Of a DNA stretch of 64,000 bases, positions 3,548-20,788 are shown piece after piece. The stretch lies in the IMG/VR virus record IMGVR_UViG_3300021963_000036; one strand, written 5' to 3'. Numbering within the stretch: position 1 is the first letter of the stretch; each line of letters opens with the position of its first letter. Below the pieces are notes generated by a model. The model searched no databases. It was not told the origin of the DNA and saw nothing but the letters and a program-made list of their open reading frames with translations. Source of the DNA: a virus (taxonomy: Duplodnaviria > Heunggongvirae > Uroviricota > Caudoviricetes). Position numbers and translations under genes: made by a program.

Positions 3548-6418
3548 ATGGCAAAGGCATTAGTATATCTAGTCAATGGCGTTTTAAGTCCGAACGTCGA
3601 AGCTACCGACACGTTCGCAAGTTGGATTGACACAACCAACCAACTAGTATATGATATGGGTACGGTAGTACTTACTGCTACGGCTAATACTCAGCCTAAT
3701 GGTACGACATCGGCTGCCGGTTGGACAGCTGGTAACTCTCATCTTGAAGGGTTCTTCTCAGCAAATACTCTTGTGGCAGCTACGGCTCTGCGCGGTGGTA
3801 CAGTAAGCACTACCACAGATTTACTTATCACATCTAATACTATATTCAGTCAAGGATCACTCGTTCTAGTTGGTGCGAATACAAATAACTTCACCGTGAA
3901 TGCTAATAACTCATTGTTTACAAGCAACGTTGCTATTGCTAACACATCAAAAGTGTTTACAATTTCTGTTGCAAATACATCAATCAACGACGGCCCGTTA
4001 TACGTAAAGACTAATGCATGGTTCACCGGTGCTATTACAGATATTCTTGGTACAACTGCTAACGTTACGTCAAATACAGTATTCACTTCAAGTACGATGT
4101 TTGCAAACGTTGACCTAGTTACGATTGGTGCAAACGCATCTGATAGTTTAGTCGTAAATTCTGTAGTTGACATCAACTCAAATACAAACATCGACGGTAT
4201 TCTGACTGTAACCGCGAATGCAAACTTTAGCGGTACAAATACAACCTTTACTGCTATTGAAGCATCAGGTGAAATCCGACTCAAGGGTACGTCTACTCGT
4301 ACTATTAAGACACAGAGTACGAACTCAACAATGTCTTCGCTGAATATCAGTGTGGCAAATACATCTGCTACTGTAACTCCACTTATTGTATCTTCTACTG
4401 CTTTGCTGCCAGATACTACGACAACATACGATATAGGTTCTGCTTCCGCAACATGGAATAAGGCATGGTTCAAAGATCTCGATGTAGCGAACAGCGTAAA
4501 CATTCAGGTTGACGCCGAAGTCGATCGTGATATGGTTGTGCGTCGTGACTTATATGTTTATGGAAGTACAACTCTTTCTTCTAACGCAACTCTCTCGCTA
4601 AATACTTCTAGTATTACAGATCTAAATGTATTGAGTACATTATCCTTTATTGGTGGTGCTGGGTTCGATACAAACGCATTACCTACAGCTAACGTGACAT
4701 ATTCGCTCGGTTCAAGCACTATGCGTTGGAATCAATTGTTCGCGAATAATGTAACGGCAAATACCGCTACACTTACAGTGTTGACGACTGGTTCGGTTGG
4801 TTCTGATTTAATTCCATCTGCTAACGTAACATATTCTATCGGTGCTACTGCTACTCGTTGGAATCAGGTATTTGCTAATAACGTAACTTCAAATACTGTT
4901 AACGCCACAACAGTGACTGCAGCGCTTGTAGGTAATGCTTCGACAGCTACTACTTTACAGACGGCTCGAACCATTAACGGTGTTTCATTCAACGGTTCGG
5001 CAAATATTACAGTAACAGCGAATACAAACAATACTCTTACGCGTGGGTCTTATCTTACAGGATCAAACTTTGATGGCTCTGCTGCTACAACTTGGGCGGT
5101 CGATGCTACAACTACTGCAACTGCAAGTAAGGTTGTAGCAAGAGATACTCTTGGTAACTTTGCAGCAAATACTATCAGCGCAGATCTTGCAGGAAATGCA
5201 ACTACGGCAACAACTCTACAAACTATACGAACCATTAACGGTATAAGTTTTGATGGTTCTGCTAATATCATTGTTACAGCGAATACTAATACTACATTAA
5301 CACGTGGAACGTATCTCACTGGTTCTAACTTTAATGGATCTACTGCTACTACATGGGCAGTTGACGCTACAACTACTGCAACAGCGTCAAAGGTAGTTGC
5401 AAGAGATACTCTTGGTAACTTCTCTTCTAATACCATCACTGCAGATCTTGTAGGTAACGCAACTACAGCAACAACCTTTGAAACGGCTAGAACCATTAAT
5501 GGCGTATCGTTCAACGGTTCTGCTAATATCACGGTTACTGCAAACACTAACGCAGTGTTGACAAATGGTTCTTATCTAACTGGTTCTAACTTCAATGGCA
5601 GCACTGCTACAACTTGGGCAGTCGACGCAACATCTACTGCTGCTCTAAGTAACATCGTAGCCAGAGATGCATCAGGAAACTTTGCTGCGAATACGATTAC
5701 TGCGGCATTATTCGCTGGAGTCGGTTCGTCTATAACAAACATTAATGGCACTAACGTTACTTCTGGTACAATTGCAGATGCTAGAATTGCAACCACTCTA
5801 GTTCGCACATCAACGGCTATTACCGCCGGTGACGGTATTGATGGTGGTGGAGATTTAAGTGCGAGTAGAACAGTGGCTGTCGATGCTACGGTTGTACGTA
5901 CAACTGGCGCGCAAAGTATTGCTGGAGGTAAATCTTTTACTTCTAACATTACTACAAACACCGTGACGCCAAATGCTAACGTAACATATAACGTTGGTTC
6001 ATCTAATATGCGATATAACGCTATGTGGGCGACTACATTTAATGGTATCGCTACAACCGCACAGTACGCTGACCTTGCAGAAAAGTATCTAGCAGATGCA
6101 GAGTATTCAGTTGGAACAGTTATTGCAGTAGGTGGTACTGCTGAAGTGACTGCAGCTAGTGTTGATAATGCTCACTCAGTCCTCGGTGTTGTATCCGACA
6201 AGCCAGCATATCTCATGAACAGCGATCTCGAAGGTGGTACTACAGTTGCTCTTAAGGGTCGAGTTCCTGTAAAAGTTGTATACGAAATTAAAAAGGGTGA
6301 CAGACTTGCGCCTTCACCAGTGTCTGGTTATGCATGGGCGGACAACACAAAGGGTGCATGGGCATTCGCAATCTCGCTTGAAGATGGAACTGATATTGTA
6401 GAGGCTGTTATCCTCTAA
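3548..6418 (+). CDS. Tail fibre protein 1 with C-terminal intramolecular-chaperone-like domain
   Basis: T/A/N/S-rich, with three 87-aa repeats. C-terminal YADLAEKY...VALKGRVPVKV domain (peptidase G2/IMC-like). Confidence 0.8.
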   Translation: MAKALVYLVNGVLSPNVEATDTFASWIDTTNQLVYDMGTVVLTATANTQPNGTTSAAGWTAGNSHLEGFFSANTLVAATALRGGTVSTTTDLLITSNTIFSQGSLVLVGANTNNFTVNANNSLFTSNVAIANTSKVFTISVANTSINDGPLYVKTNAWFTGAITDILGTTANVTSNTVFTSSTMFANVDLVTIGANASDSLVVNSVVDINSNTNIDGILTVTANANFSGTNTTFTAIEASGEIRLKGTSTRTIKTQSTNSTMSSLNISVANTSATVTPLIVSSTALLPDTTTTYDIGSASATWNKAWFKDLDVANSVNIQVDAEVDRDMVVRRDLYVYGSTTLSSNATLSLNTSSITDLNVLSTLSFIGGAGFDTNALPTANVTYSLGSSTMRWNQLFANNVTANTATLTVLTTGSVGSDLIPSANVTYSIGATATRWNQVFANNVTSNTVNATTVTAALVGNASTATTLQTARTINGVSFNGSANITVTANTNNTLTRGSYLTGSNFDGSAATTWAVDATTTATASKVVARDTLGNFAANTISADLAGNATTATTLQTIRTINGISFDGSANIIVTANTNTTLTRGTYLTGSNFNGSTATTWAVDATTTATASKVVARDTLGNFSSNTITADLVGNATTATTFETARTINGVSFNGSANITVTANTNAVLTNGSYLTGSNFNGSTATTWAVDATSTAALSNIVARDASGNFAANTITAALFAGVGSSITNINGTNVTSGTIADARIATTLVRTSTAITAGDGIDGGGDLSASRTVAVDATVVRTTGAQSIAGGKSFTSNITTNTVTPNANVTYNVGSSNMRYNAMWATTFNGIATTAQYADLAEKYLADAEYSVGTVIAVGGTAEVTAASVDNAHSVLGVVSDKPAYLMNSDLEGGTTVALKGRVPVKVVYEIKKGDRLAPSPVSGYAWADNTKGAWAFAISLEDGTDIVEAVIL
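4931..5713 (+). repeat. 3 x 261-nt (87-aa) coding tandem repeat in fibre 1
   Basis: GNA(S/T)TATT...RTING units start at 4931, 5192 and 5453. Confidence 0.85.
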
Positions 6419-6426
6419 AGGGCATC

Positions 6427-8445
6427 ATGAATATTGTTTATGTAAACTACACAGTGAGAGACAGTGTATTTGATTATGCATGGCTCTCATTTAAAAGTTA
6501 TGTTGAAGATCATTACAAAGGCTCAGTGAATTGGAATTGGCACTATCCAATTAACGATTCACGAGCTAGTAACCCAGAAGAACTCGCACAGAGAATATTG
6601 CACCTTGACCCGAAGGTTGTGATGTTCTCTGCGTACGTTTGGAATGTTGGTCTATCAAGAGAAGTTGCTCGAATCGTTAAATCGCTTCGTTCAGACCTGC
6701 ATATTGTATTTGGTGGCCCTTATTGTGAATACAAAGAAGATCCCGAATATTTCACAAAGCATCCCTACATCGACTTTACTTGCCAGACCGACGGATATGG
6801 CGAACCGTTCATGAACGAGTTCCTGTACCAAGTCGAAACGGATCTAGATTGGGATAAAGTTCCTTTCATGGTCCGTGAAAATGGTTATTCAAAAGCGGTT
6901 TTTAATAAGCGAGACTTTGAATGGCCAAAAAGAATATTCAAACGTAACGCTGACTATCTCCAAAAAGTCAAGGACGAACGTGTCGGATCAATCACGCTTA
7001 TGACTATTTACGAGACACAACGTGGGTGTCCATATGGTTGTACGTTCTGCGAATGGAGCGGTGGCATCAACTCAAAGGTAACTTTTAAGCCGAGTGAAAG
7101 TGTGATTGAAGACTTCACTTGGTTAGCACAGAATGGTTTCCTTGAAGACCTACATATGGTAGAAGCAAACCTTGGTCAACTCGATAGGGACGTTATGCTC
7201 GTTGAAGAGCTGTGCAAGATCAAGAAAGAATACGGTGTGCCTCGTGACGTTATCCTCGCAGGACTGAGCAAGTCAAAGAAACCGAATGTCTATAAGATCG
7301 ACCGACTCTTAGCAGCTTCTGGATTGTCAAACGGATTCAAGATCTCTATGCAGGACATGGATCCACAGGTTCTGAAAAACATCGAACGCGTTGATGAGCC
7401 TTGGGAGAAGCAGTTCAAAGTCTACAACGAACTTCGCGATGAGTTTGGAATCAAACTTCGTGCTGAGATGATTCGCGGACTTCCGGGTACTACACTCGAA
7501 AGCTTCTATAAGCAAGCGGGAGAAATGGCAAAGCACGGAGTGTTCTGGGATAAATACACATGGCATCTGCTCCCAACATCTCCGGCATCAAACCCTGAGT
7601 ATATGAAGAAATTCAGTATCGAAGCAATTGACCTGCTAACGGACTCTATGAAGGGTTCTGCATTCAAAGCTAAGATGATCGATGAGGACGAGTTTACACA
7701 GATCGGCGGACTCGTAAACGATCAAAGGTTTATTCAACCATCGAAGATCGTAGTTGCTACTATGTCATACTCACGAGAAGACTATGCTGAGATGGTAGTC
7801 TCTGATGGAATCATATTTGCTATGGAGACCGAAGGCTATCTATCTCGGATAACCTCATATCTTGACTCCATCGGAATATCACATGCTACATTCTATAAGA
7901 GATTCTATGATACTTTCATTGACCAGAAGTATTTAAATCCTATCCAATTTAATGTGCTTAAAGCAATTATACACCAAGCACTGGATAAAGTAAAGGAAAA
8001 AAGCACAGCTCCGTTCGAATACTACAAGCTCGAAGGCCTACCTTGGAACATCTACGCGAAGATCCCTACTCTCGTCAATATCGCCATCAATGTTAACCGT
8101 GTAGAATTTTATGCTTCCCTTCTTCGATGGATTGTTGACGAATTCGGCAGCGATGAGAAGCTAGATGATCTAATCAACTGGTCAGCGAATTCAGTGAAGT
8201 GGATAGACTATGATCCGACAAAACCTAGAACATTCTTGACTGAGTATGATTGGACTTCAGACGATTTGATCAAAGGTACTTATTTGAATATTCCGTCAGA
8301 CACCGTCTATTCGAACGAGAATATGGATATTGATTGGCATACATTGTCAATGGAAGAAAGAGTGAAACGGTATTTTATTCGGCTATGTGCTTTGCATGGT
8401 AGCAATAAGATGTTTGAACACGTGAGGGTTACTCATGTTGAATAA
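6427..8445 (+). CDS. B12-binding radical SAM protein
   Basis: N-terminal cobalamin-binding-like region (VVMFSAYVWN...IVFGGP) and RGCPYGCTFCEW (CxxxCxxC). Confidence 0.8.
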   Translation: MNIVYVNYTVRDSVFDYAWLSFKSYVEDHYKGSVNWNWHYPINDSRASNPEELAQRILHLDPKVVMFSAYVWNVGLSREVARIVKSLRSDLHIVFGGPYCEYKEDPEYFTKHPYIDFTCQTDGYGEPFMNEFLYQVETDLDWDKVPFMVRENGYSKAVFNKRDFEWPKRIFKRNADYLQKVKDERVGSITLMTIYETQRGCPYGCTFCEWSGGINSKVTFKPSESVIEDFTWLAQNGFLEDLHMVEANLGQLDRDVMLVEELCKIKKEYGVPRDVILAGLSKSKKPNVYKIDRLLAASGLSNGFKISMQDMDPQVLKNIERVDEPWEKQFKVYNELRDEFGIKLRAEMIRGLPGTTLESFYKQAGEMAKHGVFWDKYTWHLLPTSPASNPEYMKKFSIEAIDLLTDSMKGSAFKAKMIDEDEFTQIGGLVNDQRFIQPSKIVVATMSYSREDYAEMVVSDGIIFAMETEGYLSRITSYLDSIGISHATFYKRFYDTFIDQKYLNPIQFNVLKAIIHQALDKVKEKSTAPFEYYKLEGLPWNIYAKIPTLVNIAINVNRVEFYASLLRWIVDEFGSDEKLDDLINWSANSVKWIDYDPTKPRTFLTEYDWTSDDLIKGTYLNIPSDTVYSNENMDIDWHTLSMEERVKRYFIRLCALHGSNKMFEHVRVTHVE

Positions 8446-9004
8446 GATAGTACTCGCAATGAACATTGAGGTAGACGAAGTCTATAAGATTCGAAATCAA
8501 ACTAACCGCGGTGTGAATGCTGAGTTTATAGAATTTTGTATTGAAGATTCCTATGTAAGAGAGCGTGCACTGAAGAATCTAATTGCGAATAAGATGAGTC
8601 CCGACATTATTGCTGCGTTCAAGAAGTTAGACTTACAGACAGTGTTTAGTTCGGTTCCAGATGAACAGTTGGTTGACTTCTTTGAGAAAATGTGTTATAA
8701 ATTAAATGATATGATCTATACGAAATTTGAGGCCAATACCTATAAGCATCATGATCTGAGTGGAACTATTGTGCTACCAGTAGTATATTCTGGCAATAGG
8801 CCATTTACCGATCACAAATACATAGGTTGGATAACTCCGTATAGCATCGACCATTTGTTAGAACATGAGAAGACCACTGAAGACGTTGCTTCAAAAGTAC
8901 AACTCAGATATGCTGAAATGATGAGAAAACATAAGGATGAGTTCGATGTATTTTTTGATGGATCTTCTATAGAAGAAGTATTGGAGTATATCAACAATGA
9001 TTAA
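8435..9004 (+). CDS. Hypothetical protein
   Basis: 189-aa ORF overlapping both neighbours. Confidence 0.6.
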   Translation: MLNKIVLAMNIEVDEVYKIRNQTNRGVNAEFIEFCIEDSYVRERALKNLIANKMSPDIIAAFKKLDLQTVFSSVPDEQLVDFFEKMCYKLNDMIYTKFEANTYKHHDLSGTIVLPVVYSGNRPFTDHKYIGWITPYSIDHLLEHEKTTEDVASKVQLRYAEMMRKHKDEFDVFFDGSSIEEVLEYINND

Positions 9005-10010
9005 CTGGGCATTCACATGGTCTTCGCGCCGAGCACCTGCATGGGAAAATTGTAATGACGCAATGAACCTTGCTCTTGGGCAAGAATGGATCTTCGGTGA
9101 CTACTATCTTCCGGTAAATTCGGGCCGTACTGGTTCACCATTAGTTGACTTTGTGAATGACGAACGTATTGCTCAGCTAAAAGCGCCTATAATTGAACAG
9201 TTTGAATCAGAGTCATTCAAATATGTTATAGAAGATAACAGATCTGGGCAAAACTTTGATGTGGGTGCAAGAAAAGGCCAGTTGATTCTAAAAGAGCATA
9301 TGACCTTGAGTATTTCTCTTACTGAAGAAAATAGTAGAGTAATCGATTTAGATGAGGTGTATTCTTACTTACAAGAATACGATTGGGTAGCACTTGGTAC
9401 ACCTATGAATAACATCGAAATCAGTAAAAAAACTCTGATGGCAAAATCTTTCTTTTACAGTCGTGATAAGTCTTTTAACATAGTGAATCTATCTGGAGAA
9501 AATCAACCTGATAACCTAGTCAAGTCTATCCCAACGGTTACGTATTGTGTATTTAAGAAGACACGAAATGGCGAACTGATTAGCTGCATCGTTAATCCGC
9601 ATTTAGTAGCAGTTCCTCATATGGATCTAAAGATCTATGGAGATAAGCATGCTGTCTTCGCTCTCGATTCATTTGACTCCACAGTTGAAGATTACTTTTT
9701 GAGACCAGTCATATCTGGAAGTGATACAAACGTACTTAATGGAAATGTTATCTTTACAAACGTACAATTCGAACTGCGTGAATACGAAGCTGGTCTGTAT
9801 TTTACGCGCCACAAATCGTATATACCATTTCCAAGAACGATTAAGACTAATCTTGGAATAACGACAGTTGGTAATGTTATTCAAGTAAATCCAACTCGAC
9901 ATTATGGATATATCTCTATAGAGTATGACGTTGACTCTATGATAAATAGCTATGGCCAAGTATCTAAAATTGGCAAACATAAAATCGAATATACCGTAAT
10001 TAGAGGATAA
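8997..10010 (+). CDS. Hypothetical protein
   Basis: 337-aa ORF coupled to its neighbours. Confidence 0.6.
   Translation: MINWAFTWSSRRAPAWENCNDAMNLALGQEWIFGDYYLPVNSGRTGSPLVDFVNDERIAQLKAPIIEQFESESFKYVIEDNRSGQNFDVGARKGQLILKEHMTLSISLTEENSRVIDLDEVYSYLQEYDWVALGTPMNNIEISKKTLMAKSFFYSRDKSFNIVNLSGENQPDNLVKSIPTVTYCVFKKTRNGELISCIVNPHLVAVPHMDLKIYGDKHAVFALDSFDSTVEDYFLRPVISGSDTNVLNGNVIFTNVQFELREYEAGLYFTRHKSYIPFPRTIKTNLGITTVGNVIQVNPTRHYGYISIEYDVDSMINSYGQVSKIGKHKIEYTVIRG
9941..9948 (+). promoter_or_regulatory. Late-promoter-like element (GATAAATA)
   Basis: One mismatch to TATAAATA, about 70 nt upstream of the 10016 ORF. Confidence 0.35.
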
Positions 10011-10015
10011 CCATT

Positions 10016-10210
10016 ATGGTTGCTGACGTAACAAGCACATTTACAGCTAGTCCTACAGTCACCCCAGCAAAAGCAACTGGCTCAACTATTGATGCTGCTT
10101 CTTTTCGAGAGATGGTGAATACGCTCGACGCATTGATTCAGCATAGTCATACCTTTACCGATGACTATACATCTAACTGTCAGTGTAACTGCCAGAGAGG
10201 CAGCATCTAA
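10016..10210 (+). CDS. Small protein with HxH motif and Cys-rich tail; putative radical SAM substrate
   Basis: 64 aa ending HSHTFTDDYTSNCQCNCQRGSI, directly abutting a SPASM radical SAM gene. Confidence 0.65.
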   Translation: MVADVTSTFTASPTVTPAKATGSTIDAASFREMVNTLDALIQHSHTFTDDYTSNCQCNCQRGSI

Positions 10211-11860
10211 GTGACAACAAATTATGTGAATGTGAAAAGGGTACTCAGTGAAGCCCAAAAGAAACGCTTAGAAAATCATACGCCAACTGTTGTTGAACAG
10301 GATGGCAAGTTAGTCACAACCTTTGAGACCATCAATATCTCAGGTAAAGGGCAGAAGACAAACAAACTCATTACGGTTCTTCCAGCTGAAGAAGAGCAAG
10401 CAGTTCCATTTGCCGATGCGGAGTTTCTATATCGTGACCTGATTCAAGTCAATGCGATGTTGACAAACGCATGTAACCTCAGTTGCTCTTACTGCTACGA
10501 GCAACACAATAAAGACTTTGGTCGATTCACAAAAGAATCCCTTAAGCAAGTCTATGATTGGATGAACTCTCGTAACAATGGCAAGAAGAAGGTGTTCCAA
10601 TTCTTTGGTGGTGAACCCCTTATCCATAAGCCTCTGATTAAAGAGTTTCTCGAAACCTACGATGAAGAGTTGTCGGGTAACTATAAAGACTATCGTGGCA
10701 CATACATTTCGATGTGTACAAACGGACTTCTATTGAATGATGAATTCATTGAGTTCTACTTTGGTAAACCATACACTCACATGATGTTGAGTCTTGATAC
10801 CCTCAATTCTGCAATTGATCATAGAGAAATCACTCCTGCACAGCTGAACAAAGTTCTCAAGAGTATCGACAAGATCGTAGAAGTTCTCGGTGATGATGCG
10901 AACCGTCTTGTGATTCGAGCTACGCTCTCACAAGAGACTTCACGTGACATGAAGAACTTCATCGAGACCTTGTATGACCACGGAATTCGTAACATGGTTG
11001 TTCATCCACTCGTGCTTGACTCAAGACATGGCTACATCTCATGGAAAGACGATAACTGGCAGAATATGCGAAATGCAATCTTCGGTGCACTTGAGAAGTA
11101 TGAAGACCTTTACATTCGATTCTCTGAAGGTGTTGGTCTGAAGGAAGATAGCAACTGCATGGTTGGCTCACATATGGTGGCTATCGATGCGTCTGGTGAC
11201 TTCTCAGGTTGCTACTTCTTTACGAATCAGAAATCTAATGGCGCTGACATCGCTGTGCTCGGGAATGTGTTCCAGGATCGTGTATACATAGATCGGTACA
11301 AGAAGTTTCAAAGCGCTTATCAGGAGATGTTCGACACAGAAGAGCAGTGTCGAACCTGCGACTATCAGGATGCTTGCTATCAATGCCCTGCTGGTAATAT
11401 GGATACTGGTTCGAGAATCTTCCGCCCTGACGATATGTGCCAAAAGATTGTAAAGCTTTACGTTGACTTCCAACATGACGTAGCAAAGAAACTATTCATG
11501 CGACACGTGAAGAAACGATACACTCGACTGCAAGAACATGGTGAAAAAGTCTTAGCTGCGGAGTTGCAGTACTTTTATGAGAAATTTAATGGGAGCGGCA
11601 TAGATGATTTTGAGCATTATTTACGGATGGATCTTCCTCATTATAGTGATGTCATACGTGCCTGGACCGTGGACAGCGAAACCCAAGCAGCCGATCTACG
11701 TTCGCTCTACAACGTCCTCGCAAAAAGATTCGACAAACCAAGAATCGATATCGAAATCACATCTGACTTCATAAAGTGTTATTATATCCAATGCATATCG
11801 ACGATCATCTTCGACAAGAACAGAATGAACGAAGTCAAACTTACGACTTTGCTGGAATAA
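10211..11860 (+). CDS. Radical SAM/SPASM protein
   Basis: CNLSCSYC, FFGGEPL, SPASM-like CMVG...GCYFF and CRTCDYQDACYQCPAG...C. Confidence 0.85.
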   Translation: MTTNYVNVKRVLSEAQKKRLENHTPTVVEQDGKLVTTFETINISGKGQKTNKLITVLPAEEEQAVPFADAEFLYRDLIQVNAMLTNACNLSCSYCYEQHNKDFGRFTKESLKQVYDWMNSRNNGKKKVFQFFGGEPLIHKPLIKEFLETYDEELSGNYKDYRGTYISMCTNGLLLNDEFIEFYFGKPYTHMMLSLDTLNSAIDHREITPAQLNKVLKSIDKIVEVLGDDANRLVIRATLSQETSRDMKNFIETLYDHGIRNMVVHPLVLDSRHGYISWKDDNWQNMRNAIFGALEKYEDLYIRFSEGVGLKEDSNCMVGSHMVAIDASGDFSGCYFFTNQKSNGADIAVLGNVFQDRVYIDRYKKFQSAYQEMFDTEEQCRTCDYQDACYQCPAGNMDTGSRIFRPDDMCQKIVKLYVDFQHDVAKKLFMRHVKKRYTRLQEHGEKVLAAELQYFYEKFNGSGIDDFEHYLRMDLPHYSDVIRAWTVDSETQAADLRSLYNVLAKRFDKPRIDIEITSDFIKCYYIQCISTIIFDKNRMNEVKLTTLLE

Positions 11861-12894
11861 GATCTGTCACAATCTATCTTGGCGATACGTGCAACTTCGA
11901 CTGCGTCTACTGTGATAGAGCATATATTAAGCACGACATTGGTTCACAGAACCTGAACAAATCTGACTTTGACGACATCATAGAGTTTATGAAAGTCGTT
12001 AAAGAACAAGCCAAAGATCTGAAAGCAATTTCATTTCATGGTGGCGAACCATTTTTATATGTGAAGAGAATGGACGAATTACTCGACGCGCTTGATCCGA
12101 TCTTTGGCAAAGACATGGAATACTACATCACGTCGAATGGATCGAAGATCGTTGAGAATGAATGGTTCTTTCAGAAGTGGCCAAAGATTCATATCACTCT
12201 GAGTTACGACTTTAATTATCAATTAGTCAATAGAGAATATGTAGACCTGAAAGCAATTTCAGATGTAATCTATCGTAACGATTGCTACATGATGTTTCAG
12301 TTTGTTATTCCACCAGACGGTTTTGGTGAAGACACACTTGCTGAAGTAATTCGATCATGCAAACTGGCTCGATGCGATACTATCAATATCATTCCACTTC
12401 GGCATCATCGTGGCGCAAGAAAGTTCAAAGTCCTTATTGACGATTTTGATATGAAGTGGTATAGTGTTTACTTAATGCGGTTCATTCATACGCTGTATGT
12501 ACAAGGAATCACTCTCAACATCGACGGAAACTATCATGGCATCGACAAACAATACTTAAACAACCACAGCAAAATGATTCTGAGTCCCGATGGATACGTC
12601 TATCCGGAATTCGATTATCTTGAGTATAAGAGAAAAGAATTTCGAATTGGTAAGTGGAAGGGCGGCATCGAACTCGATCGAGTCAAGGACGAGAATCAAT
12701 TCATTCTTCCCGGCTGTGTCTCGTGTCATATGAGAGACGCATGTGGATTGAAGTATCTCTATAAGATGTTCGATGAAGAGCCAAAGGGAAATTGTGTTGA
12801 CTTCTACACTACTATCAATCTCATGGTGAAACACCTTCATGCGCTCAAACAGAAACCAACTCTGATGCATTGGATTGGGATCGGCGATGGATGA
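11776..12894 (+). CDS. Radical SAM protein with partial SPASM-like C-terminus (start uncertain, 11776 or 11791)
   Basis: CNFDCVYC, FHGGEPF, C-terminal CVSCHMRDAC...C. Confidence 0.8.
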   Translation: MLLYPMHIDDHLRQEQNERSQTYDFAGIRSVTIYLGDTCNFDCVYCDRAYIKHDIGSQNLNKSDFDDIIEFMKVVKEQAKDLKAISFHGGEPFLYVKRMDELLDALDPIFGKDMEYYITSNGSKIVENEWFFQKWPKIHITLSYDFNYQLVNREYVDLKAISDVIYRNDCYMMFQFVIPPDGFGEDTLAEVIRSCKLARCDTINIIPLRHHRGARKFKVLIDDFDMKWYSVYLMRFIHTLYVQGITLNIDGNYHGIDKQYLNNHSKMILSPDGYVYPEFDYLEYKRKEFRIGKWKGGIELDRVKDENQFILPGCVSCHMRDACGLKYLYKMFDEEPKGNCVDFYTTINLMVKHLHALKQKPTLMHWIGIGDG

Positions 12895-13396
12895 ACTATA
12901 TCGAGCTGCATGTAGCGTGAAGACAATTCCGGCAATGAGCTACCACAATTGGAAGACGTGGCACGAATGGCCGTATCGCACGATTGCTGATCATATTACA
13001 CATGACAAAACTATCATCGACGTCGGTGCAGGTTGTGGCTTTCTAAGCATGCATCTTCTCATGACTGGAAAATGTGATAGGGTTATTGCTTACGATACAC
13101 GAGAAACCATGTGTGAGTTCATGTCGATATTGAGTAACGTATTAGGGCTCGCGACTCGACTTGATGTAAAGTGCGAACCTTTCCAAAGTAATCGACATGA
13201 CAACTTAACGGTCTCGACTCGACTTGGGTTTCCAAACATACTATTCAACAACAAAGCTACAACCGTAACGATGGCTCGTACAAAGGAATGTGAGCCGATC
13301 TTTAAGTACGTCGAAACTCCAATTGATTGGAATGAGAAAGTCGCTACTCGTGACGATGGATTCACTATGAGGTTGCTATGGAACTATCAGCAATAA
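12887..13396 (+). CDS. Class I SAM-dependent methyltransferase
   Basis: Motif I IIDVGAGCGFLS followed by VIAYD. ATG at 12887. Confidence 0.7.
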   Translation: MDELYRAACSVKTIPAMSYHNWKTWHEWPYRTIADHITHDKTIIDVGAGCGFLSMHLLMTGKCDRVIAYDTRETMCEFMSILSNVLGLATRLDVKCEPFQSNRHDNLTVSTRLGFPNILFNNKATTVTMARTKECEPIFKYVETPIDWNEKVATRDDGFTMRLLWNYQQ

Positions 13397-13746
13397 TTCT
13401 CCTATACGATGATGATTTTGAAGTTCCTCTCGAAGGAATCTATGGTGTTGTCTATATGATTCCGGGCTTGACAAGGCAATTCCCTTGGTGGATACGTCGA
13501 TTCTCTTTTGCTGAGCATTACCCTATGCCAGATTTTGTAATACCTAATCCAGGAAAGTCAACAGTAATCGGTGTGCCGCTGAGTGAAACTGCTCACGTGT
13601 ATCGCATGGCGATCTTTGGTCAACGTTGGATTGAAGACGTCAATAGAGAAATTGTTTCAACGTTTCCACCTGTGAATGAAGTGAGCGTGCAGGGAGATGA
13701 TTACGTTCCTGACATAGATTTGATGAGGGTTCTCCAAAATGTCTGA
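13378..13746 (+). CDS. Hypothetical protein
   Basis: 122-aa ORF overlapping both neighbours. Confidence 0.55.
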   Translation: MELSAIILLYDDDFEVPLEGIYGVVYMIPGLTRQFPWWIRRFSFAEHYPMPDFVIPNPGKSTVIGVPLSETAHVYRMAIFGQRWIEDVNREIVSTFPPVNEVSVQGDDYVPDIDLMRVLQNV

Positions 13747-14875
13747 TGAAGGCGAAGAGTTCCGTAAGTTCAAAGACCATGACTCGTACTTCATAACTGA
13801 AGATGCGCTCATGCCTCTACATCATGATATAACGTTTAGTCCGACTCGTAAATACTATTGTGCTGCGAATTGCCAAGTTTGTTACATCAAGAAGAAACTG
13901 AACGCACATCTACCGTTCTATTCGGAAGCTATTCCAGAGAAGATCACTAGTGAAGACGAGAAGCGATGGTACGACATTTTTAGTTACTTCTATGTGATAA
14001 GAGTTGTTGACGATCTGAAGTTTTTGAAAGCTCATTACCCTCACATCTATGGTTGGTACAAAGAGCATGCACCGACTTTCGAATACGGCATGACTGACAA
14101 CGCGATCATTCAACAACACGAGACTCTCATGGAACTCGACATGAAGAGTCTATCCGAGGTTGCATTGAGTGAAGAGTTCATGAACAAAGTGAATTCGAAA
14201 AAGAACTATAACAAAGTCATGGAAATCCTGCAAGACTATATTGACAAATACGATCTTCATAAAGTCAAAGTGATCAAGACTTCGAACGAAGAACTTCCAT
14301 ATCATGCAAGAGAACTTGTCGAATGGATCAATGACAAAGGAATCGTTACTTCACTTCACAATGATTATCGTAAAACAAATGTGAATGATAACGAACTTGG
14401 GAATGTTGATCACGATTTGAATGGGCTCTTTGATTATCAGAATAGTCACGTCCTTTGTTATAATGATCGAACGTATCAAGTCTATCGTGGTTCTTTGCAC
14501 CTGTATGGCGATCGATTCTTCTATAGTATTGACGATGCAACTGACATCAATTGGGATCCGTTTCATACGATGAATGGCGACTTCGATCATCAGAAGTTTA
14601 TGACCGATATGATCCAAGGCAAGTTTAATTTGTATTCTAAGTTTGCTAATGAATTAAAGAATGCTGGAAGCGATATCGCAGAAAAATTCCGTAGCTACTA
14701 TATAAATACTACTGACAAGTTTATGGTTGACCGTGAATTCAATTTCATTCCCAATATTATGCTGAGCGACAAATCAAAATACTATCACAAGTTGGTAGAA
14801 CTCGGTTATCGTCCTACTGAAGTTGGATTGTATTTACCAAATGGTTCTCCAAAACCAATTATTGGATTCAGGTAA
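13739..14875 (+). CDS. Divergent radical SAM-like protein
   Basis: CAANCQVC (CxxxCxxC) near the N-terminus; no GGEP and no SPASM cysteines. Confidence 0.55.
   Translation: MSDEGEEFRKFKDHDSYFITEDALMPLHHDITFSPTRKYYCAANCQVCYIKKKLNAHLPFYSEAIPEKITSEDEKRWYDIFSYFYVIRVVDDLKFLKAHYPHIYGWYKEHAPTFEYGMTDNAIIQQHETLMELDMKSLSEVALSEEFMNKVNSKKNYNKVMEILQDYIDKYDLHKVKVIKTSNEELPYHARELVEWINDKGIVTSLHNDYRKTNVNDNELGNVDHDLNGLFDYQNSHVLCYNDRTYQVYRGSLHLYGDRFFYSIDDATDINWDPFHTMNGDFDHQKFMTDMIQGKFNLYSKFANELKNAGSDIAEKFRSYYINTTDKFMVDREFNFIPNIMLSDKSKYYHKLVELGYRPTEVGLYLPNGSPKPIIGFR
14701..14708 (+). promoter_or_regulatory. T4 late promoter
   Basis: Exact TATAAATA about 175 nt upstream of the 14881 ORF. Confidence 0.55.
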
Positions 14876-14880
14876 AAGAA

Positions 14881-15252
14881 ATGGCAATATTAGCAGGAAC
14901 TACTTCTACTGACGTAGCATTATCGTTACGTACAACTTATACTACACCGCTGTTGGCACAAATCGCAAGCGGTAACACAGTGCAAGCTGCGCACATGACA
15001 TTACTCAAAAACTTCATTAATGCTATTGAACCGCATACTCATACGCTAACCGACTATTCTAAAATTCACGAATTTGGAAACACAGATAGTACATTATCAA
15101 CTGTAGATACTGTTACTGCCGTATCAACATCTCCTATATCAGCGACATATGCGACTGGTGGCACCATTACTGCAGCTGATTATACAGCAATGCGTACAAC
15201 TGTAGAGGCACTCAGAGTACACAATCACGCATGGGATGATCTAACGGCATGA
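14881..15252 (+). CDS. Small fibre-like protein with two HxH-motif repeats; putative radical SAM substrate or structural partner
   Basis: Internal repeat ASGNTVQAAH...HTHTLTD / ATGGTITAAD...HNHAWDD, similar to the 10016 protein. Confidence 0.65.
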   Translation: MAILAGTTSTDVALSLRTTYTTPLLAQIASGNTVQAAHMTLLKNFINAIEPHTHTLTDYSKIHEFGNTDSTLSTVDTVTAVSTSPISATYATGGTITAADYTAMRTTVEALRVHNHAWDDLTA

Positions 15253-16523
15253 TGCAATTACCTTGTTATGAACTCAGTGATGGTAGTTCGTTTTATTATG
15301 ACTCTCATTCAAATACAATCTACAACACAGAAGGTGAGCAATTAAGTTTGCCACCTTCAAAAGCTATTGAGTACTACGAAGCTGAAGCGGCGAATCATGG
15401 TGTTGATTATAAGGTCAACAATCCATTTGCGATTCGTATCCTTCTTGGACATGCTTGTAATTACAACTGTACGTATTGCATGCAAAAAGATATTGGAAAT
15501 CCTTTAGAGAGACCGCAGTCAATCTATACCGAAACCTTCATTGTTAATATCAAGAAGAATCTAAATCTCGATAGGCTCAATCGAATCGAACTTTGGGGTG
15601 GTGAACCATTTTTATATTGGAAAGACATGGTCGAGCTTATGAAGTTCTTTGACTCTCCTGATCGAGAGTTCTTCATATCGACAAACGGTTCGGCCTTTGT
15701 ACAAAAACATGTTGACTTCTTCGCGACTTTGAAATCAACTATTCTCATCAGTTGTAGTCATGACGCAGTTGGTCAAAAAGAACTTCGCGGCGACGACATT
15801 CTTGAGAATCCAAAGAAGGTTGACATCATTAAGAAACTGCTTGCACTTCCAAACGTACAACTGGGTTTCTCTTCAGTAGTAAGCAATCAGAACCACGATC
15901 TATACGCGATCAACGATTACTTCAGAGACTTCTGTGATCGCGAAGGCATCAAGGATATGAAGATCACTTTCATTCCAGCAAAGAACTACGACGTGCATGA
16001 TACTGAGATGGCTTCATCGAATTACATCCTTCGTGGTGAGAAACTGAAAGCATTTGCTCAGCACTTATATGACTTTACTCAGGATTCGTTTAAAGATCGA
16101 ACGAAGTTCTTACGTAATAACATCTTGTATTCACCTGAAGGTGTGATCGACTACGCAAAGTTCTTAAGACAGCAGACTCCTATTACAACAAAGTCTGGAT
16201 GTGGTGCCGATTCGAACGATGTATTATCCGTTGATATTCAAGGAAACATTCGCTTGTGTCCTCATACTGACAGTAGTTTTATTGCTGGTAAGTTAGAAGA
16301 CGTCGGGTCTGTAAAGATCAAAGGTATGGACCTTGCCCGTAAGAAAAATCATTGCATGAAGTGCCCAGTAAAACGCTTGTGTAGATCGTCGTGCCCTATC
16401 AAGTTTCCAGATCACGTGTTCTATTCTAATTGCGCACTCGAAAAAGTCTGGTGGGGAAACATTCAACTTCACGCATTCAAATTGTTATTCGGACAAACTG
16501 TGTCCATGAAAGGTACATCATGA
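15249..16523 (+). CDS. Radical SAM/SPASM protein
   Basis: CNYNCTYC, LWGGEPF, CGAD...LCPH, CMKCPVKRLCRSSCP...C. Confidence 0.85.
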   Translation: MMQLPCYELSDGSSFYYDSHSNTIYNTEGEQLSLPPSKAIEYYEAEAANHGVDYKVNNPFAIRILLGHACNYNCTYCMQKDIGNPLERPQSIYTETFIVNIKKNLNLDRLNRIELWGGEPFLYWKDMVELMKFFDSPDREFFISTNGSAFVQKHVDFFATLKSTILISCSHDAVGQKELRGDDILENPKKVDIIKKLLALPNVQLGFSSVVSNQNHDLYAINDYFRDFCDREGIKDMKITFIPAKNYDVHDTEMASSNYILRGEKLKAFAQHLYDFTQDSFKDRTKFLRNNILYSPEGVIDYAKFLRQQTPITTKSGCGADSNDVLSVDIQGNIRLCPHTDSSFIAGKLEDVGSVKIKGMDLARKKNHCMKCPVKRLCRSSCPIKFPDHVFYSNCALEKVWWGNIQLHAFKLLFGQTVSMKGTS

Positions 16524-17266
16524 AACTGAACAAAGCACTCATTGAAGAACATACATCGATGCTACGAAACCATTCGTTGCTTGTGACGAATAATATTCAA
16601 AGCAAAGCTGATCTTCGAATCTTTATGGAACATCACGTCTTTGCTGTATGGGATTTTATGTCACTACTCAAGACTCTTCAAAATGAAGTCGTTCCGAGTA
16701 AGACTATATGGATGCCAACTCGTGGAACACGTTCTGATATCGCACGAATGATCAATGAGATTGTTTTAGGGGAAGAGACTGATATCGCTCCGGGAGGTGG
16801 ATCTATTAGTCACTTTGATCTATACCTTCAGGCGATGTTAGAAGTCAACGCAAGTACTGGTCCTATTTTAACGTTCCTAAACAATCTAGAAACAAACTTG
16901 TCAATACCGTATCATCTTGCCTCGAGGCCAGCTGAGAAGTTCATGCGAAACACATTTGGTACTATCAATCGTGGACCGCATTGTGTTGCTGCATCTTTTG
17001 CGTATGGTCGCGAAACGATCATTCCAGATATGTTCACTCGACTATTAACTCAATTAAATATAAGCAAGCTTGAAGCCCCAAAGTTTCATTATTATCTTCA
17101 AAGACATATCGAAGTTGATGGTGATGAGCATGGCCCAATGTCTGAACATCTCGTTGAATACTTCTGTAATAATGATCCAATTAAGATTCATGAAGCTGAA
17201 CAATCTGCTGTTTCGGCGATCAAAGCCCGTATTGAGTTCTTCAACGATATCGAAAAACTTATGTAG
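16520..17266 (+). CDS. DUF3050-family heme-oxygenase-like (dimetal oxidase fold) protein
   Basis: FMEHHVFAVWDFMSLLK, INEIVLGEETD, SHFDLYL, GRETIIPDMF, RHIEVDGDEHG. ATG at 16520. Confidence 0.75.
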   Translation: MKLNKALIEEHTSMLRNHSLLVTNNIQSKADLRIFMEHHVFAVWDFMSLLKTLQNEVVPSKTIWMPTRGTRSDIARMINEIVLGEETDIAPGGGSISHFDLYLQAMLEVNASTGPILTFLNNLETNLSIPYHLASRPAEKFMRNTFGTINRGPHCVAASFAYGRETIIPDMFTRLLTQLNISKLEAPKFHYYLQRHIEVDGDEHGPMSEHLVEYFCNNDPIKIHEAEQSAVSAIKARIEFFNDIEKLM

Positions 17267-17642: not shown

Positions 17643-17888
17643 ATGAGTATCAAAGCAGTTGTTACACAGGGCATTTCGACTACCGCTAAGGTAACTCCTC
17701 AGCAAAATATTTTAGTCACTAACTACCAAGTAAGTACGAGCAATATTACACTCGATGATCTTTCTGATGTTGTTGTCGGCAATTTGCAGGACGGCGCGCT
17801 TATCACTTACGACGAATCGACACAAACTTGGAGAGCTCAGACTGTGATCGAGAATCCAAACACAGAAATTAACGGAGGATTCTTCTAA
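17643..17888 (+). CDS. Small virion/fibre-associated protein
   Basis: 81 aa with LDDLSDV...GALITYD...W, a fibre-type motif. Confidence 0.6.
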   Translation: MSIKAVVTQGISTTAKVTPQQNILVTNYQVSTSNITLDDLSDVVVGNLQDGALITYDESTQTWRAQTVIENPNTEINGGFF

Positions 17889-20788
17889 TGTCACTCATCA
17901 GAATCAAACGATCAGGTTCTTCCGGATCACCTGGCGCACTCGCTCAAGGTGAAATGGCCTACTCGTTTCTTGGCGGTACACAGTCTAATGGCGGTGAACG
18001 TTTATATATCGGCACTGGTACAGAAACTGGCGGTATTGCAGCGAATATTGAAGTAATTGGTGGTAAATATTTCACTGATAAGTTAGATCATGTTCCGGGA
18101 ACGCTCACCGCAAGTTCAGCATTAATCGTTGACGCAGATAGTAAAATCGATGTACTCAATATCGATAATATCACCATCAACGGAAATTCAATTACATCTA
18201 CAGACGCAAATGGAAACATCGTTCTCGACCCAAATGGTACAGGAAGTGTTAACGTAAGTTCTGCTAAGATCATAAACCTTGCTACACCAACGACCGGCAC
18301 AGATGCTGCGACTAAACAATACGTCGATGATAGATTTGCAGGTGGCTCTGTTGCTATTCAAATCGCTGCAGACTCTGGTACAACCGATTCGGTATTAACG
18401 AACGAAATTGTCACCTTCACTGGCGATACTGGAATTACAACAACTGTAGCTAACAACTCAATCACTATTGATCTTGACGACACTGCTGTCACGCCGGGTT
18501 CGTATGGTAACACAACTTCTATCGCTACATTCACTGTAGATCAACAAGGTCGTTTGACCGCGGCAAGCACTGCAGCGATTGCAACAAACCTGTCAATCGC
18601 CGGTGATAGTGGTACAGACTCAGTTTCATTGCTCAGTGATACTCTTAATTTCAGTGGTAACACTGGTATCACCATTGCTGTTACTAATAATAGAGTCGAT
18701 GTAGATCTTGACGACACCGCAGTAACTCCTGGGTCATATGGTAATACAACTTCTATCGCTACATTTACTGTAGATCAACAAGGTCGTTTGACAGCAGCAG
18801 GTACTGCAGCAGTTGCTACGATTCTTAATATTGCTGGAAACTCTGGCACTGATGGTATATCACTTATCTCTGATACATTGTCTGTAATCGGTGATACAGC
18901 AATCACTGCTACAGTTACAAACAATACAATCACACTCAATCTAGACAACACCACTGTAACTCCTGGAACTTATGGTACAGCAACAGCAATTCCTACGATT
19001 GTTATAGATCAACAGGGTCGTATTACTTCATCGTTTGCGAACACGATTGCTATTCCTTCTACTCAGATCACAGATTTTGCAGAAGCTGTTCAAGATACTG
19101 TTGGTGGTATGCTCACCGGTACACAGAATGGTATCAGCGTAACCTATACTGATAATGGTGTAGGCGGCGGGTATCTTAACTTCGATGTTGCAGATCCTAC
19201 AATTACATTGAGTGGTGATGTTGTTGGTTCTGCAACAATGACAAATCTTGGTAACGTGACTATTAGCACTACGATCCAGCCAAACTCAGTTGCTCTTGGA
19301 ACTGACACAACTGGAGATTATGTGTCAAGTCTTGTTGCTGGAACCGGTGTTACACTTACGAATAATTCTGGTGAAAGCGCGACGCCAACAATTGCTATTG
19401 GGCAAGACGTATCAACTACATCTAACGTCACGTTTGCTTCGGCTACATTCACAGGTTCTGTGTCTATTGATGGTGACTTATACATCGGTGGTAACACCGC
19501 AAGCATTAGCGTGTCAAACCTCAGTGTTGACGATAACATAATCTATCTTAACGCGAATAGTACTGTTACAAATCCAGATATAGGATTTGTGGGCAACTAT
19601 AATGACGGTACCTACGCCCATACCGGCTTCTTCCGCGACGCAAGTGACGGATATTTTAAAGTATTTAAGGGATATACACTCGAACCGGACGTTGGGCCGT
19701 ACATTGACACCACACATGCTTCATTTGCGTTAGCAGATATTGAAGCAGCAAACTTCAGAGGTGCTTTGATTGGCAACGCTGATACTGCGACCAAGTGGGC
19801 AACTGCTAGAACAATTAATCTCTCTGGAGACGTAAATGGTTCTGTGTCTATCGATGGTACAGCTAACGTAACTATCACTACAACGATTCAACCAGATTCA
19901 GTCGCTCTTGGAACTGACACAACTGGTAACTATGCAGGTTCTGTTGCAGTATCTGGTAATGGTCTATCTATCATTGGCACGGCTGGTGAAGGAACTGATT
20001 ATACAATCAACTCAAATGCTACAAGTCTAGTAACTGCTTCTACTATTGTTTACAGAGATGCATCTTCTAACTTTGCAGCAAATACGATTACCGCTGCGCT
20101 TGTTGGTAATGCTTCAACAGCAACTACATTACAAACCGCAAGAACTATATCTCTTTCTGGAGACGTTGCAGGTTCGGTATCGTTTGATGGCAGCGGCAAC
20201 GTTAATATCACAACAGCAGTACAGCCGGATTCGGTTGCTCTTGGAACTGACACTACTGGTAACTATGTTGCATCGATCACGAATGGTAACTATATTACTG
20301 GCGCTGATAGTGGATCAGAAGCTTCTGCACTTACTTTAAACGTTGATGCTACAACTACTCCAACACCAAACAAAGTTGTTGCTCGTGATGCATCTGGTAA
20401 CTTCTCAGCAAATACTATCACTGCTGCTCTTACTGGTAATGCTTCTACGGCAACTACACTTCAAACTGCTCGTACGATTACACTGTCCGGAGACGTTGCA
20501 GGTTCTATATCGTTCAATGGTAGTTCAGACGTCAATATAAGTACTACAATACAGGCTGATTCAGTAGCTCTTGGAACTGACACAACCGGTAACTATGTTG
20601 CTACTATCGCAGTTACATCCGGTACTGGTTTAAGTATATCTGGATCAGGTTCTGAAACAGCTGCAGTTACTCTTGCAGGTATTGATGCTACTACATCTGT
20701 TAAAGGTGTTGCAAGCTTCAGTTCAACTAACTTTACAGTTACTTCTGGTGCAGTATCAATTAGCACTATAGATGGTGGAACTTACTAA
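17888..20788 (+). CDS. Tail fibre protein 2
   Basis: N-terminal IRIKRS...L..GE.AY attachment motif; repeats TPGSYGNTTSIATFTVDQQGR and DSVALGTDTTGNY. Confidence 0.8.
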   Translation: MSLIRIKRSGSSGSPGALAQGEMAYSFLGGTQSNGGERLYIGTGTETGGIAANIEVIGGKYFTDKLDHVPGTLTASSALIVDADSKIDVLNIDNITINGNSITSTDANGNIVLDPNGTGSVNVSSAKIINLATPTTGTDAATKQYVDDRFAGGSVAIQIAADSGTTDSVLTNEIVTFTGDTGITTTVANNSITIDLDDTAVTPGSYGNTTSIATFTVDQQGRLTAASTAAIATNLSIAGDSGTDSVSLLSDTLNFSGNTGITIAVTNNRVDVDLDDTAVTPGSYGNTTSIATFTVDQQGRLTAAGTAAVATILNIAGNSGTDGISLISDTLSVIGDTAITATVTNNTITLNLDNTTVTPGTYGTATAIPTIVIDQQGRITSSFANTIAIPSTQITDFAEAVQDTVGGMLTGTQNGISVTYTDNGVGGGYLNFDVADPTITLSGDVVGSATMTNLGNVTISTTIQPNSVALGTDTTGDYVSSLVAGTGVTLTNNSGESATPTIAIGQDVSTTSNVTFASATFTGSVSIDGDLYIGGNTASISVSNLSVDDNIIYLNANSTVTNPDIGFVGNYNDGTYAHTGFFRDASDGYFKVFKGYTLEPDVGPYIDTTHASFALADIEAANFRGALIGNADTATKWATARTINLSGDVNGSVSIDGTANVTITTTIQPDSVALGTDTTGNYAGSVAVSGNGLSIIGTAGEGTDYTINSNATSLVTASTIVYRDASSNFAANTITAALVGNASTATTLQTARTISLSGDVAGSVSFDGSGNVNITTAVQPDSVALGTDTTGNYVASITNGNYITGADSGSEASALTLNVDATTTPTPNKVVARDASGNFSANTITAALTGNASTATTLQTARTITLSGDVAGSISFNGSSDVNISTTIQADSVALGTDTTGNYVATIAVTSGTGLSISGSGSETAAVTLAGIDATTSVKGVASFSSTNFTVTSGAVSISTIDGGTY
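18362..19063 (+). repeat. 3 x 234-nt (78-aa) coding tandem repeat in fibre 2
   Basis: IA(A/G)(D/N)SGT units start at 18362, 18596 and 18830, with near-identical DNA between units 1 and 2. Confidence 0.8.

Follow-up and report, generated by a model that had tools for sequence, protein, structure and literature searches.

Cross-linking of cysteine-rich peptides by radical S-adenosylmethionine (radical-SAM) enzymes has been described for bacterial antibiotics and for a small number of cellular proteins, but is not known from lytic phages. CteB, the SCIFF-type thioether synthase of Clostridium thermocellum (structures 5WGG and 5WHY), combines a radical-SAM domain with a SPASM domain of seven cysteines, and its cysteine-rich substrate CteA is encoded beside it. 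PapB, the maturase of PapA (freyrasin), and NxxcB are ranthipeptide maturases that join cysteine to aspartate or glutamate, or to asparagine. QhpD and CrpC introduce SPASM-dependent thioethers into QhpC and CrpA, which stay proteins; QhpC is a small cysteine-rich subunit cross-linked by its SPASM enzyme. CrpA contains a C-X-X-Q/D motif and receives ranthionine cross-links from a SPASM enzyme (PMC13692751). The subject here is a 64-amino-acid (aa) cysteine-tailed mini-protein, hereafter the peptide, and the SPASM enzyme encoded next to it in a stretch of 64,000 nucleotides (nt) of the Caudoviricetes record IMGVR_UViG_3300021963_000036 from IMG/VR (the window). Sequence comparison suggests, with about an even chance of being correct, that the two belong to a phage-specific complex of small proteins that is matured by radical-SAM enzymes and carries a thioether cross-linked cysteine tail.

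Groups of radical-SAM genes have been recorded in lytic phages before, in the Campylobacter phages CP220 and CPt10, in the host-recognition clusters of pelagimyophages and in RP12 and RP31 (PMC2853527, PMC7029224, PMC5468394). Several such genes stand together there, in some cases beside tail-fibre genes, as in the present locus. These papers list the radical-SAM genes in passing or read them as metabolic helpers, and none describes small substrate proteins. A survey of the literature on phage radical-SAM enzymes, peptides made by the ribosome and modified after translation (RiPPs), ranthipeptides and tail fibres found no description of this system or of its small proteins.

The central elements of the locus are listed below.

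10016..10210, plus strand: 64-aa cysteine-tailed mini-protein (the peptide), conserved and under purifying selection

10088..10162, plus strand: amphipathic helix and H43-x-H45-x3-D49 module of the peptide; H43, H45 and D49 are invariant in 41 diverse homologues

10178..10207, plus strand: (Cys-X)n tail of the peptide, C55-Q-C57-N-C59-Q-R61-G62-S-I; in the same 41 homologues C55, C57, R61 and G62 do not vary and more than 90% keep C59

10211..11860, plus strand: 549-aa radical-SAM/SPASM enzyme with Pfam domains PF04055, PF13353 (Fer4_12) and PF13186

10472..10495, plus strand: CX3CX2C radical-SAM cluster motif of the enzyme (C88, C92, C95), invariant in 24 homologues of 43-81% identity

11156..11440, plus strand: SPASM region of the enzyme with seven cysteines (C316, C334, C380, C383, C389, C392, C410), invariant in the same 24 homologues

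The open reading frame (ORF) of the peptide extends from the ATG at 10016 to the TAA at 10208-10210, and the C-terminal letters of the 64-aa product are SNCQCNCQRGSI / DDYTSNCQCNCQRGSI / HSHTFTDDYTSNCQCNCQRGSI. The preliminary description of the window, made from its letters, had pointed to a CxCxC tail and to a stop codon placed directly before the start of the radical-SAM gene, and reading the sequence bears out both: the cysteines are C55, C57 and C59, and the GTG at 10211 that opens the 549-aa ORF follows the TAA with zero gap. Purine-rich ribosome-binding sites lie at the usual distance from both starts, GAGGA 8 nt 5' of the peptide ATG and AGAGAGG 10 nt 5' of the enzyme GTG. Exact abutment of stop and start is limited to the clade of the window; elsewhere the peptide gene ends up to about 50 nt 5' of the enzyme start, overlaps it by a few codons, or is separated from it by one or two genes.

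A search of 5.8 billion proteins recovered 27 clusters of peptide homologues at 64-95% identity, and a profile search of 1.84 billion representatives recovered 66 clusters at 50% identity. Over the core 30 codons, comparison of the window with its closest relative (locus L006, whose enzyme is 94% identical) gives 14 changes for 19.3 synonymous sites and 2 for 70.7 non-synonymous sites; the pooled ratio of non-synonymous to synonymous change (pN/pS) over 42 unique peptide sequences is 0.33, with synonymous sites saturated. The preliminary description had named lack of conservation as an observation that would speak against its proposal; the 27 clusters and the purifying selection relative to L006 show the opposite. 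A chance ORF, or an untranslated spacer ahead of the enzyme gene, would be in keeping with the shortness of the frame, with the lack of any family in Pfam, PHROG and NCBIfam scans and with its missing annotation in RP12. This reading is rejected because of the selection pattern just given; indels are in-frame only, the peptide is kept down to ∼35% identity in very different phages and a Shine-Dalgarno sequence is present, so that the probability left to it is negligible and it is refuted as far as sequence evidence goes. By the same evidence the 64-aa ORF is a real, conserved and selected gene.

The product follows a plan of variable N-terminus, amphipathic helix ending in H-x-H-x3-D, and C-terminal (Cys-X)n-R-G tail. 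In the alignment of homologues the N-terminal third is variable and rich in indels, and the C-terminal 40 residues are almost invariant. The family tail reads (Cys-X)n-Cys followed by x-R-G-x-x and contains 3, 4, 5 or 6 cysteines. Counted over 112 unique tails, the positions that separate the cysteines hold N in 41%, Q in 33%, A in 12%, E in 7% and D in 6% of cases, N/Q/E/D together making up 87%. These interleaved residues match the C-X-X-Q/D motif of CrpA and are of the kind expected of ranthionine acceptors. The module has the form H-x-H-x-aromatic-x-D wherever it occurs in the system.

Variants of the tail are found in a few family members. In protein P0183 the cysteine repeat is not C-terminal, as a proline-rich linker and then a domain of 180 aa come after it, and in P0180 the cysteine run is interrupted by a poly-Pro insert. 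Another member (L052:5807-6019) has the degenerate tail ACNCWVNNNCTRGIL, in which the HxH module and the RG ending are kept and the regular alternation of cysteines is lost.

The enzyme encoded at 10211 matches the Pfam families Radical_SAM (E 1e-18) and SPASM (E 2e-5, 25.2 bits against a cut-off of 21.5). Its SPASM cysteines are spaced C-x17-C ... C-x2-C-x5-C-x2-C ... C, a pattern that would allow two auxiliary 4Fe-4S clusters, one of them with an open site as in CteB. Its best NCBIfam model is PapB (NF047865), which aligns across positions 7-321 of its 330 and gives 111.9 bits where the cut-off is 340. The next models are the nif11-peptide maturase, the CXXX-repeat maturase, QhpD and HxsB, none at cut-off; QhpD (TIGR03906), with 69 bits for a cut-off of 453, fails as a family assignment. 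TIGR04463, GrrM and YhhB are also among the matches. The best match by sequence in the PDB is CteB (5wgg, E 4e-17), and the AlphaFold2 model of the enzyme, with a predicted local distance difference test score (pLDDT) of 72, finds CteB again as best fold match (5why, E 3e-13), followed by anSME, SkfB, TigE, ChlB and SuiB. By sequence and fold, the closest relatives are the thioether-forming maturases PapB, CteB and QhpD, which places the enzyme, as judged from these comparisons, in the peptide- or protein-modifying SPASM group, nearest to thioether formers and outside every curated family. No PqqD-type recognition domain was detected, residues 1-83 giving no Pfam match at E up to 0.1; the model has a helix, a beta-hairpin and a helix in the N-terminal region at low pLDDT (32-64). 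Residues 409-549 form a confident helical C-terminal domain without a Pfam family.

Set beside the known systems, the locus shares with CteB/CteA the radical-SAM domain, the seven SPASM cysteines and a cysteine-rich putative substrate encoded next to the enzyme, at an identity of ∼17-18%. In contrast to CteB, the phage enzyme has no detectable N-terminal RiPP recognition element and has an extra helical C-terminal domain of 140 residues; the phage peptide has cysteines of period 2 and an HxH module, and the whole is a phage-borne cassette of several enzymes. PapB is the best NCBIfam model over its whole profile, and N/Q/D/E residues stand three residues from cysteines as in the PapB and NxxcB substrates; the phage repeat is, however, C-X and not C-X3-D, so that rings would overlap. 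With QhpD/QhpC and CrpC/CrpA the phage system would share a small cysteine-rich protein that is cross-linked and not a cleaved peptide, whereas those systems are cellular (an amine dehydrogenase subunit and a methanogen protein), have no HxH module or comparable partner, and belong to families whose cut-offs the phage enzyme misses by far. In its proposed mechanism the phage system comes closest to CteB/CteA and PapB/PapA, and in a product that would stay a protein to QhpD/QhpC and CrpC/CrpA. In one relative of 74% identity the SPASM gene reads as two ORFs of 186 aa and 357 aa (L003:6001-7644 / L008), through either a true disruption or an assembly error.

The peptide and the enzyme are tied together across a large and almost entirely viral family. 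More than 406 homologue clusters of the enzyme are found in metagenomes at E <1e-20, and a scan of IMG/VR with the alignment of 24 homologues gave 58 enzyme loci at 37-94% identity. Across 185,579 prokaryote species, one genome each, only 3 enzyme loci occur, on two short contigs of metagenome-assembled genomes and one Ewingella scaffold; among GenBank phages the family is confined to the Ralstonia jumbo phages RP12 and RP31, at 39% identity. The enzyme family is almost phage-only. A small ORF with an HxH...D module and a (Cys-X)n-RG tail is encoded in 47 of 48 non-redundant enzyme loci, the 48th being cut at a contig end, and co-occurrence of peptide and enzyme is near-obligate. The cassette can be traced from marine, estuarine and freshwater T4-like phages to the Ralstonia jumbo phages.

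A megablast of the island against GenBank phages gave no match. RP12 has the same cassette, at 39% enzyme identity. Its peptide homologue is an unannotated 65-aa ORF ending SNCNCNCACTRGSL (L005:4871-5068, NC_041911 ∼82888-83085), located between ORF074, a two-HxH protein, and ORF075, a member of the family of the gene at 8997 (h8997), whose start is overlapped by the stop of the small ORF. The virion mass-spectrometry table of RP31 (PMC5468394, Table S3), which covers major gel bands only, lists neither the cassette proteins nor the neighbouring fibre-like ORF68/69 and is thus uninformative on this point.

A second small protein of the cassette carries the same module as the peptide, in two copies.

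14881..15252, plus strand: 123-aa protein with two HxH...D modules; H52, H54, D58, H114, H116 and D120 are invariant

A separate protein with exactly two H-x-H-x3-D modules is encoded in 45 of 48 loci. The 123-aa protein has no Pfam or NCBIfam family and only a weak match to phrog_31780 (E 2.5e-05). Whatever the gene boundaries, the modules beside the cassette add up to three, distributed 2+1 in those 45 loci and 1+2 in L066; in P0198 the three modules and the cysteine tail are joined in one chain of 230 aa, and other single chains with three modules exist. The HxH...D part of the peptide is more than a leader, because it is invariant across the family and repeated in the 123-aa partner. In three loci (L042, L055 and L060) the peptide gene is located away from the SPASM gene and the two-HxH gene has moved along with it, in L055 together with the h8997-family gene. 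The substrate genes move as a unit. The 1+2 arrangement (L066:5059-8710) lies on a 253-kb scaffold of Ewingella americana (NZ_RCZD01000008), where an 85-aa protein with one HxH is followed by a 122-aa protein with two HxH and a six-Cys tail; the SPASM enzyme of this locus has 696 aa and an N-terminal extension rich in Cys, Gly and His.

The pair of the 123-aa protein and the 64-aa peptide was chosen for complex modelling because of this constant total of three. Each chain entered with its own alignment, in three runs and against three controls. The interface score (ipSAE) of the complex is 0.65 (runs 0.59, 0.65 and 0.69), the best of the 3 controls reaching 0.18; contacts agree between runs to at least 82% and the partner is modelled at a pLDDT of at least 64. 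In calibration, 58 of 80 solved complexes and 2 of 110 mismatched pairs came up to the score mark, figures that hold only roughly here as the alignments are our own. No solved homologue of either chain was found, and the score is hence not the memory of a known complex. The predicted interface comprises peptide residues 4-48, namely the helix and H43/H45, and the helices of both partner modules including H52, H54, H114 and H116, so that all six histidines of the three modules are in it; the cysteine tail (49-64) is free and outside. The prediction supports binding of the peptide to the 123-aa partner.

Histidine pairs of this kind have a precedent in phage particles: HxH iron sites are described in gp37 and gp12 of T4 and at the apex of the P2 gpV spike (PMC11705849; bioRxiv 10.1101/2023.02.25.529910). 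The likeness consists in an invariant H-x-H, three copies per assembly (here a predicted one) and a tail-fibre neighbourhood. The known sites, however, are formed by three identical beta-structured chains, whereas the modules here are helical and split 2+1 over two small and different proteins, and a metal would be hypothetical; the modules thus depart from the homotrimeric, beta-structured fibre pattern.

For the thioether chemistry, the assignment of the enzyme to its site, metal binding, expression timing and virion location, we infer the following course of events. The helix with its HxH module would dock the peptide onto the 123-aa protein, giving a complex that holds three HxH...D modules. 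By analogy with the sites in phage fibres and spikes, the modules may come together in a small bundle of helices, in which the six histidines could enclose a metal ion. For the neighbouring SPASM enzyme, which resembles CteB and PapB, the free cysteine tail would be the likeliest substrate. The tail would enter the enzyme, where a substrate thiolate may bind the auxiliary cluster that has only three protein ligands, as in CteB, and abstraction of a hydrogen from a neighbouring N/Q/D/E side chain would lead to a thioether between the cysteine sulfur and a side-chain carbon of Asn, Gln, Asp or Glu. Linkage in C-x-x-[NQDE] or [NQDE]-x-x-C registers would produce a short rigid ladder of rings, and the period-2 pattern would make these registers overlap; in the window the candidate pairs are C55...N58 with C57...Q60, or N54...C57 with Q56...C59. 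The other three radical-SAM-like enzymes of the cassette and its DUF3050 protein may add further modifications to the same small proteins. The product would probably remain a protein made late in infection, perhaps as part of the adsorption apparatus, and not a cleaved and exported antibiotic. A more specific version of this proposal, namely a heterodimer with a pseudo-threefold six-His metal cage and overlapping thioether rings, served by four dedicated radical-SAM-type enzymes and acting in adsorption or penetration, is possible but rather doubtful.

Several points weigh against the proposed cross-linked complex. All curated equivalog cut-offs lie far above the scores that the enzyme reaches (for PapB, 340 against 112), and because of this its reaction could differ from thioether formation. 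A PqqD-like recognition domain did not turn up in the enzyme, whose first 80 residues have a model of low confidence. The peptide gene directly adjoins the SPASM gene in just 25 of 48 loci; as four radical-SAM-like enzymes are moreover co-conserved, the pairing of this one with the cysteine tail comes from position and homology alone. The score of the complex is model confidence obtained from our own alignments and demonstrates neither binding nor a metal. CxCxC tails, like HxH motifs, can also serve simply as ligands of metals, so that the tail might be unmodified.

This last point leads to a different account, in which the small proteins are scaffolds for metal or clusters, with the HxH pairs and the unmodified CxCxC tail ligating iron, zinc or Fe-S species, and the radical-SAM enzymes have a different target (tail fibres or a small molecule) or use the scaffold to assemble a cofactor. 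Alternating cysteine runs are typical metal ligands, the three modules provide six histidines, and four radical-SAM-like enzymes with a di-iron-type DUF3050 protein exceed the needs of simple cross-linking; in phage fibres and spikes, octahedral histidine cages formed by HxH motifs hold iron (PMC11705849; bioRxiv 10.1101/2023.02.25.529910). A metal site, however, does not need the bias towards N/Q/E/D between the cysteines, the nearest relatives of the enzyme all modify cysteines of peptides or proteins, and its seven rather than eight auxiliary-cluster cysteines hint that, as in CteB, one site is left open to a thiolate of the substrate. Such scaffolds are therefore considered unlikely. Other radical-SAM chemistry on the tail or on HxH...D, such as cyclophane-type C-C links on histidines or aromatics (H-x-H-x-[FYW]-x-D), C-methylation, oxidation of cysteine or an intermolecular link to partner or fibre, would be consistent with the cyclophane-type families HxsB, GrrM and YhhB among the NCBIfam matches, with ChlB, SuiB and anSME among the fold matches, with the aromatic residue in all modules and with the B12 radical-SAM enzyme and methyltransferase-like gene in the clade of the window. 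Thioether formers are nevertheless the best matches by both sequence and fold, and the invariant cysteines would be left to be explained, which makes this chemistry distinctly improbable for the enzyme at 10211; it may hold for other enzymes of the cassette without displacing the cross-linked complex.

The preliminary description had seen in the locus the classic precursor-maturase layout of sactipeptide and ranthipeptide clusters. Read as a classic RiPP, the helix and HxH module would be the leader and the cysteine tail the core of a cleaved, cross-linked peptide, freed at lysis as a bacteriocin, signal or anti-defence molecule. The part of this that holds is a selected small ORF tied to a SPASM enzyme related to PapB, CteB and QhpD, with N/Q/D/E residues of acceptor type in its tail: a precursor lies beside a SPASM gene, a cysteine-rich C-terminal core is present in the enzyme locus (47 of 48 loci) and follows a more conserved segment, and lysis would make an exporter unnecessary. 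The part that does not hold is the classic locus of two genes and its secondary-metabolite setting. The cassette has neither leader peptidase nor exporter, no PqqD-type domain is detectable on the enzyme, four radical-SAM-like enzymes rather than one or two are co-conserved, and the family is almost phage-only, with 3 loci in 185,579 species where a bacterial or archaeal cluster would be expected. The supposed leader has H43, H45 and D49 invariant family-wide, and its module occurs twice in a separate conserved protein that has no cysteine core and with which a complex is predicted; this two-HxH protein and a non-enzymatic protein of some 300 aa are the most constant neighbours. Fusions place three modules and a tail in one 230-aa chain, or a 180-aa domain after the cysteine repeat as in P0183. 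A cleaved and released peptide is accordingly quite unlikely.

New features of the system are its almost phage-only distribution, the cysteine tail of period 2, an HxH...D module that the peptide has in common with a partner, the three-module rule and a cassette of four enzymes by the tail fibres. The cassette devotes four iron-sulfur enzymes to a pair of tiny proteins encoded beside the tail fibres. A product that is a protein of the virion or of infection would represent a new layer of chemistry in phage particles, offer enzymology a new class of thioether-laddered peptides and allow a testable connection to the HxH sites proposed to bind iron in marine phages. Should the heterodimer with a six-His cage and overlapping rings be true, a virion component would for the first time be seen to undergo post-translational modification by radical-SAM chemistry, and the period-2 cysteines would mark a new class of RiPP-like products. 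Annotation routinely overlooks a gene central to the system, as in RP12.

The remaining members of the cassette are as follows.

6427..8445, plus strand: B12-binding radical-SAM enzyme (PF02310, PF04055), found mainly in the clade of the window and in a few other loci (present in L006-L012, L064 and a few others)

8997..10010, plus strand: 337-aa h8997-family protein, whose gene is the neighbour most constantly found with that of the peptide (jackhmmer, AlphaFold2)

11776..12894, plus strand: second radical-SAM enzyme, twitch-type (Pfam Radical_SAM E 4e-10; NCBIfam N_Twi_rSAM 52 bits)

13739..14875, plus strand: 378-aa CX3CX2C-motif protein, phrog_36229, conserved 3' of the second radical-SAM gene

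15249..16523, plus strand: third radical-SAM enzyme with a SPASM-like end (phrog_1802 E 6e-45; TIGR04085 27.6 bits), conserved in the cassette

16520..17266, plus strand: DUF3050 (haem-oxygenase-like) protein (PF11251 E 1e-77)

A search of the window proteins against all loci delineates an enzyme block that is kept from locus to locus and comprises the SPASM enzyme, the twitch radical-SAM enzyme, the 378-aa CX3CX2C protein, the third radical-SAM enzyme and often DUF3050; the co-conserved radical-SAM-like enzymes number four. The second radical-SAM gene overlaps the 3' end of the SPASM gene and comes after it in almost all loci. The DUF3050 gene, found in many loci but missing from others, begins with an ATG that overlaps the stop before it (ATGA). 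Pfam and NCBIfam scans found no peptidase, transporter or exporter domain in any gene between 6427 and 17641. A methyltransferase-like gene, below Pfam cut-offs, and a 122-aa ORF at 12875-13746 occur only in the window and its closest relative L006 and are absent from the relatives of 74% identity.

The h8997 family (300-340 aa) has a member in 58 of 63 loci by jackhmmer; in 44 of the 48 non-redundant loci 60 nt at most separate this member from the peptide gene. The protein has no family in Pfam, PHROGs or NCBIfam, and its AlphaFold2 model (pLDDT 81) ends in an immunoglobulin-like (Ig-like) sandwich, for which Foldseek and VIA gave generic Ig-like matches only, the best with Z 7.9 and a root-mean-square deviation of 2.3 Å over 79 aligned residues; a protein-atlas match at 0.78 is of no value. 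The lack of any invariant residue and the merely generic Ig-like domain speak for a protein with a structural or chaperone function and against an enzyme.

Flanking genes at 3548-6418, 17888-20788 and 20837-24913 match PHROG tail-fibre families, and genes for terminase, sheath, portal and major head protein follow downstream, so that the setting is the structural region of a T4-like myovirus. The preliminary description had likewise placed the locus between phage tail-fibre genes, in agreement with the matches at 3548-6418 and 17888-20788.

A sequence resembling a late promoter precedes the peptide gene.

9941..9948, plus strand: GATAAATA, which differs at one position from the T4 late-promoter box TATAAATA and lies 75 nt 5' of the peptide start

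Two relatives of 74% identity (L007 and L008) have the exact box at the same -75 position. Exact boxes are present in 7 of 43 unique regions upstream of peptide genes, where ∼1 is expected. The box at 9941 is thus a putative promoter, and by this sequence evidence the cassette is probably expressed late. Elsewhere in the window the exact box occurs at 14701, 17276, 26233, 40177, 41815, 47204, 47910, 48851 and 50238, shortly 5' of the genes at 14881, 17309 and 26410 and of several structural genes, as expected of T4-type late promoters; those ahead of 14881 and 26410 fall within the preceding coding sequence.

The gene at 26410 belongs to a second pair of small protein and SPASM enzyme in the window (26410-27024 and 25388-26407). 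Its 204-aa product has no Pfam family and ends VCHASCHSNCHSSRGRR, that is (C-H-x-x)3 followed by x-R-G-x-x as in the tail of the peptide.

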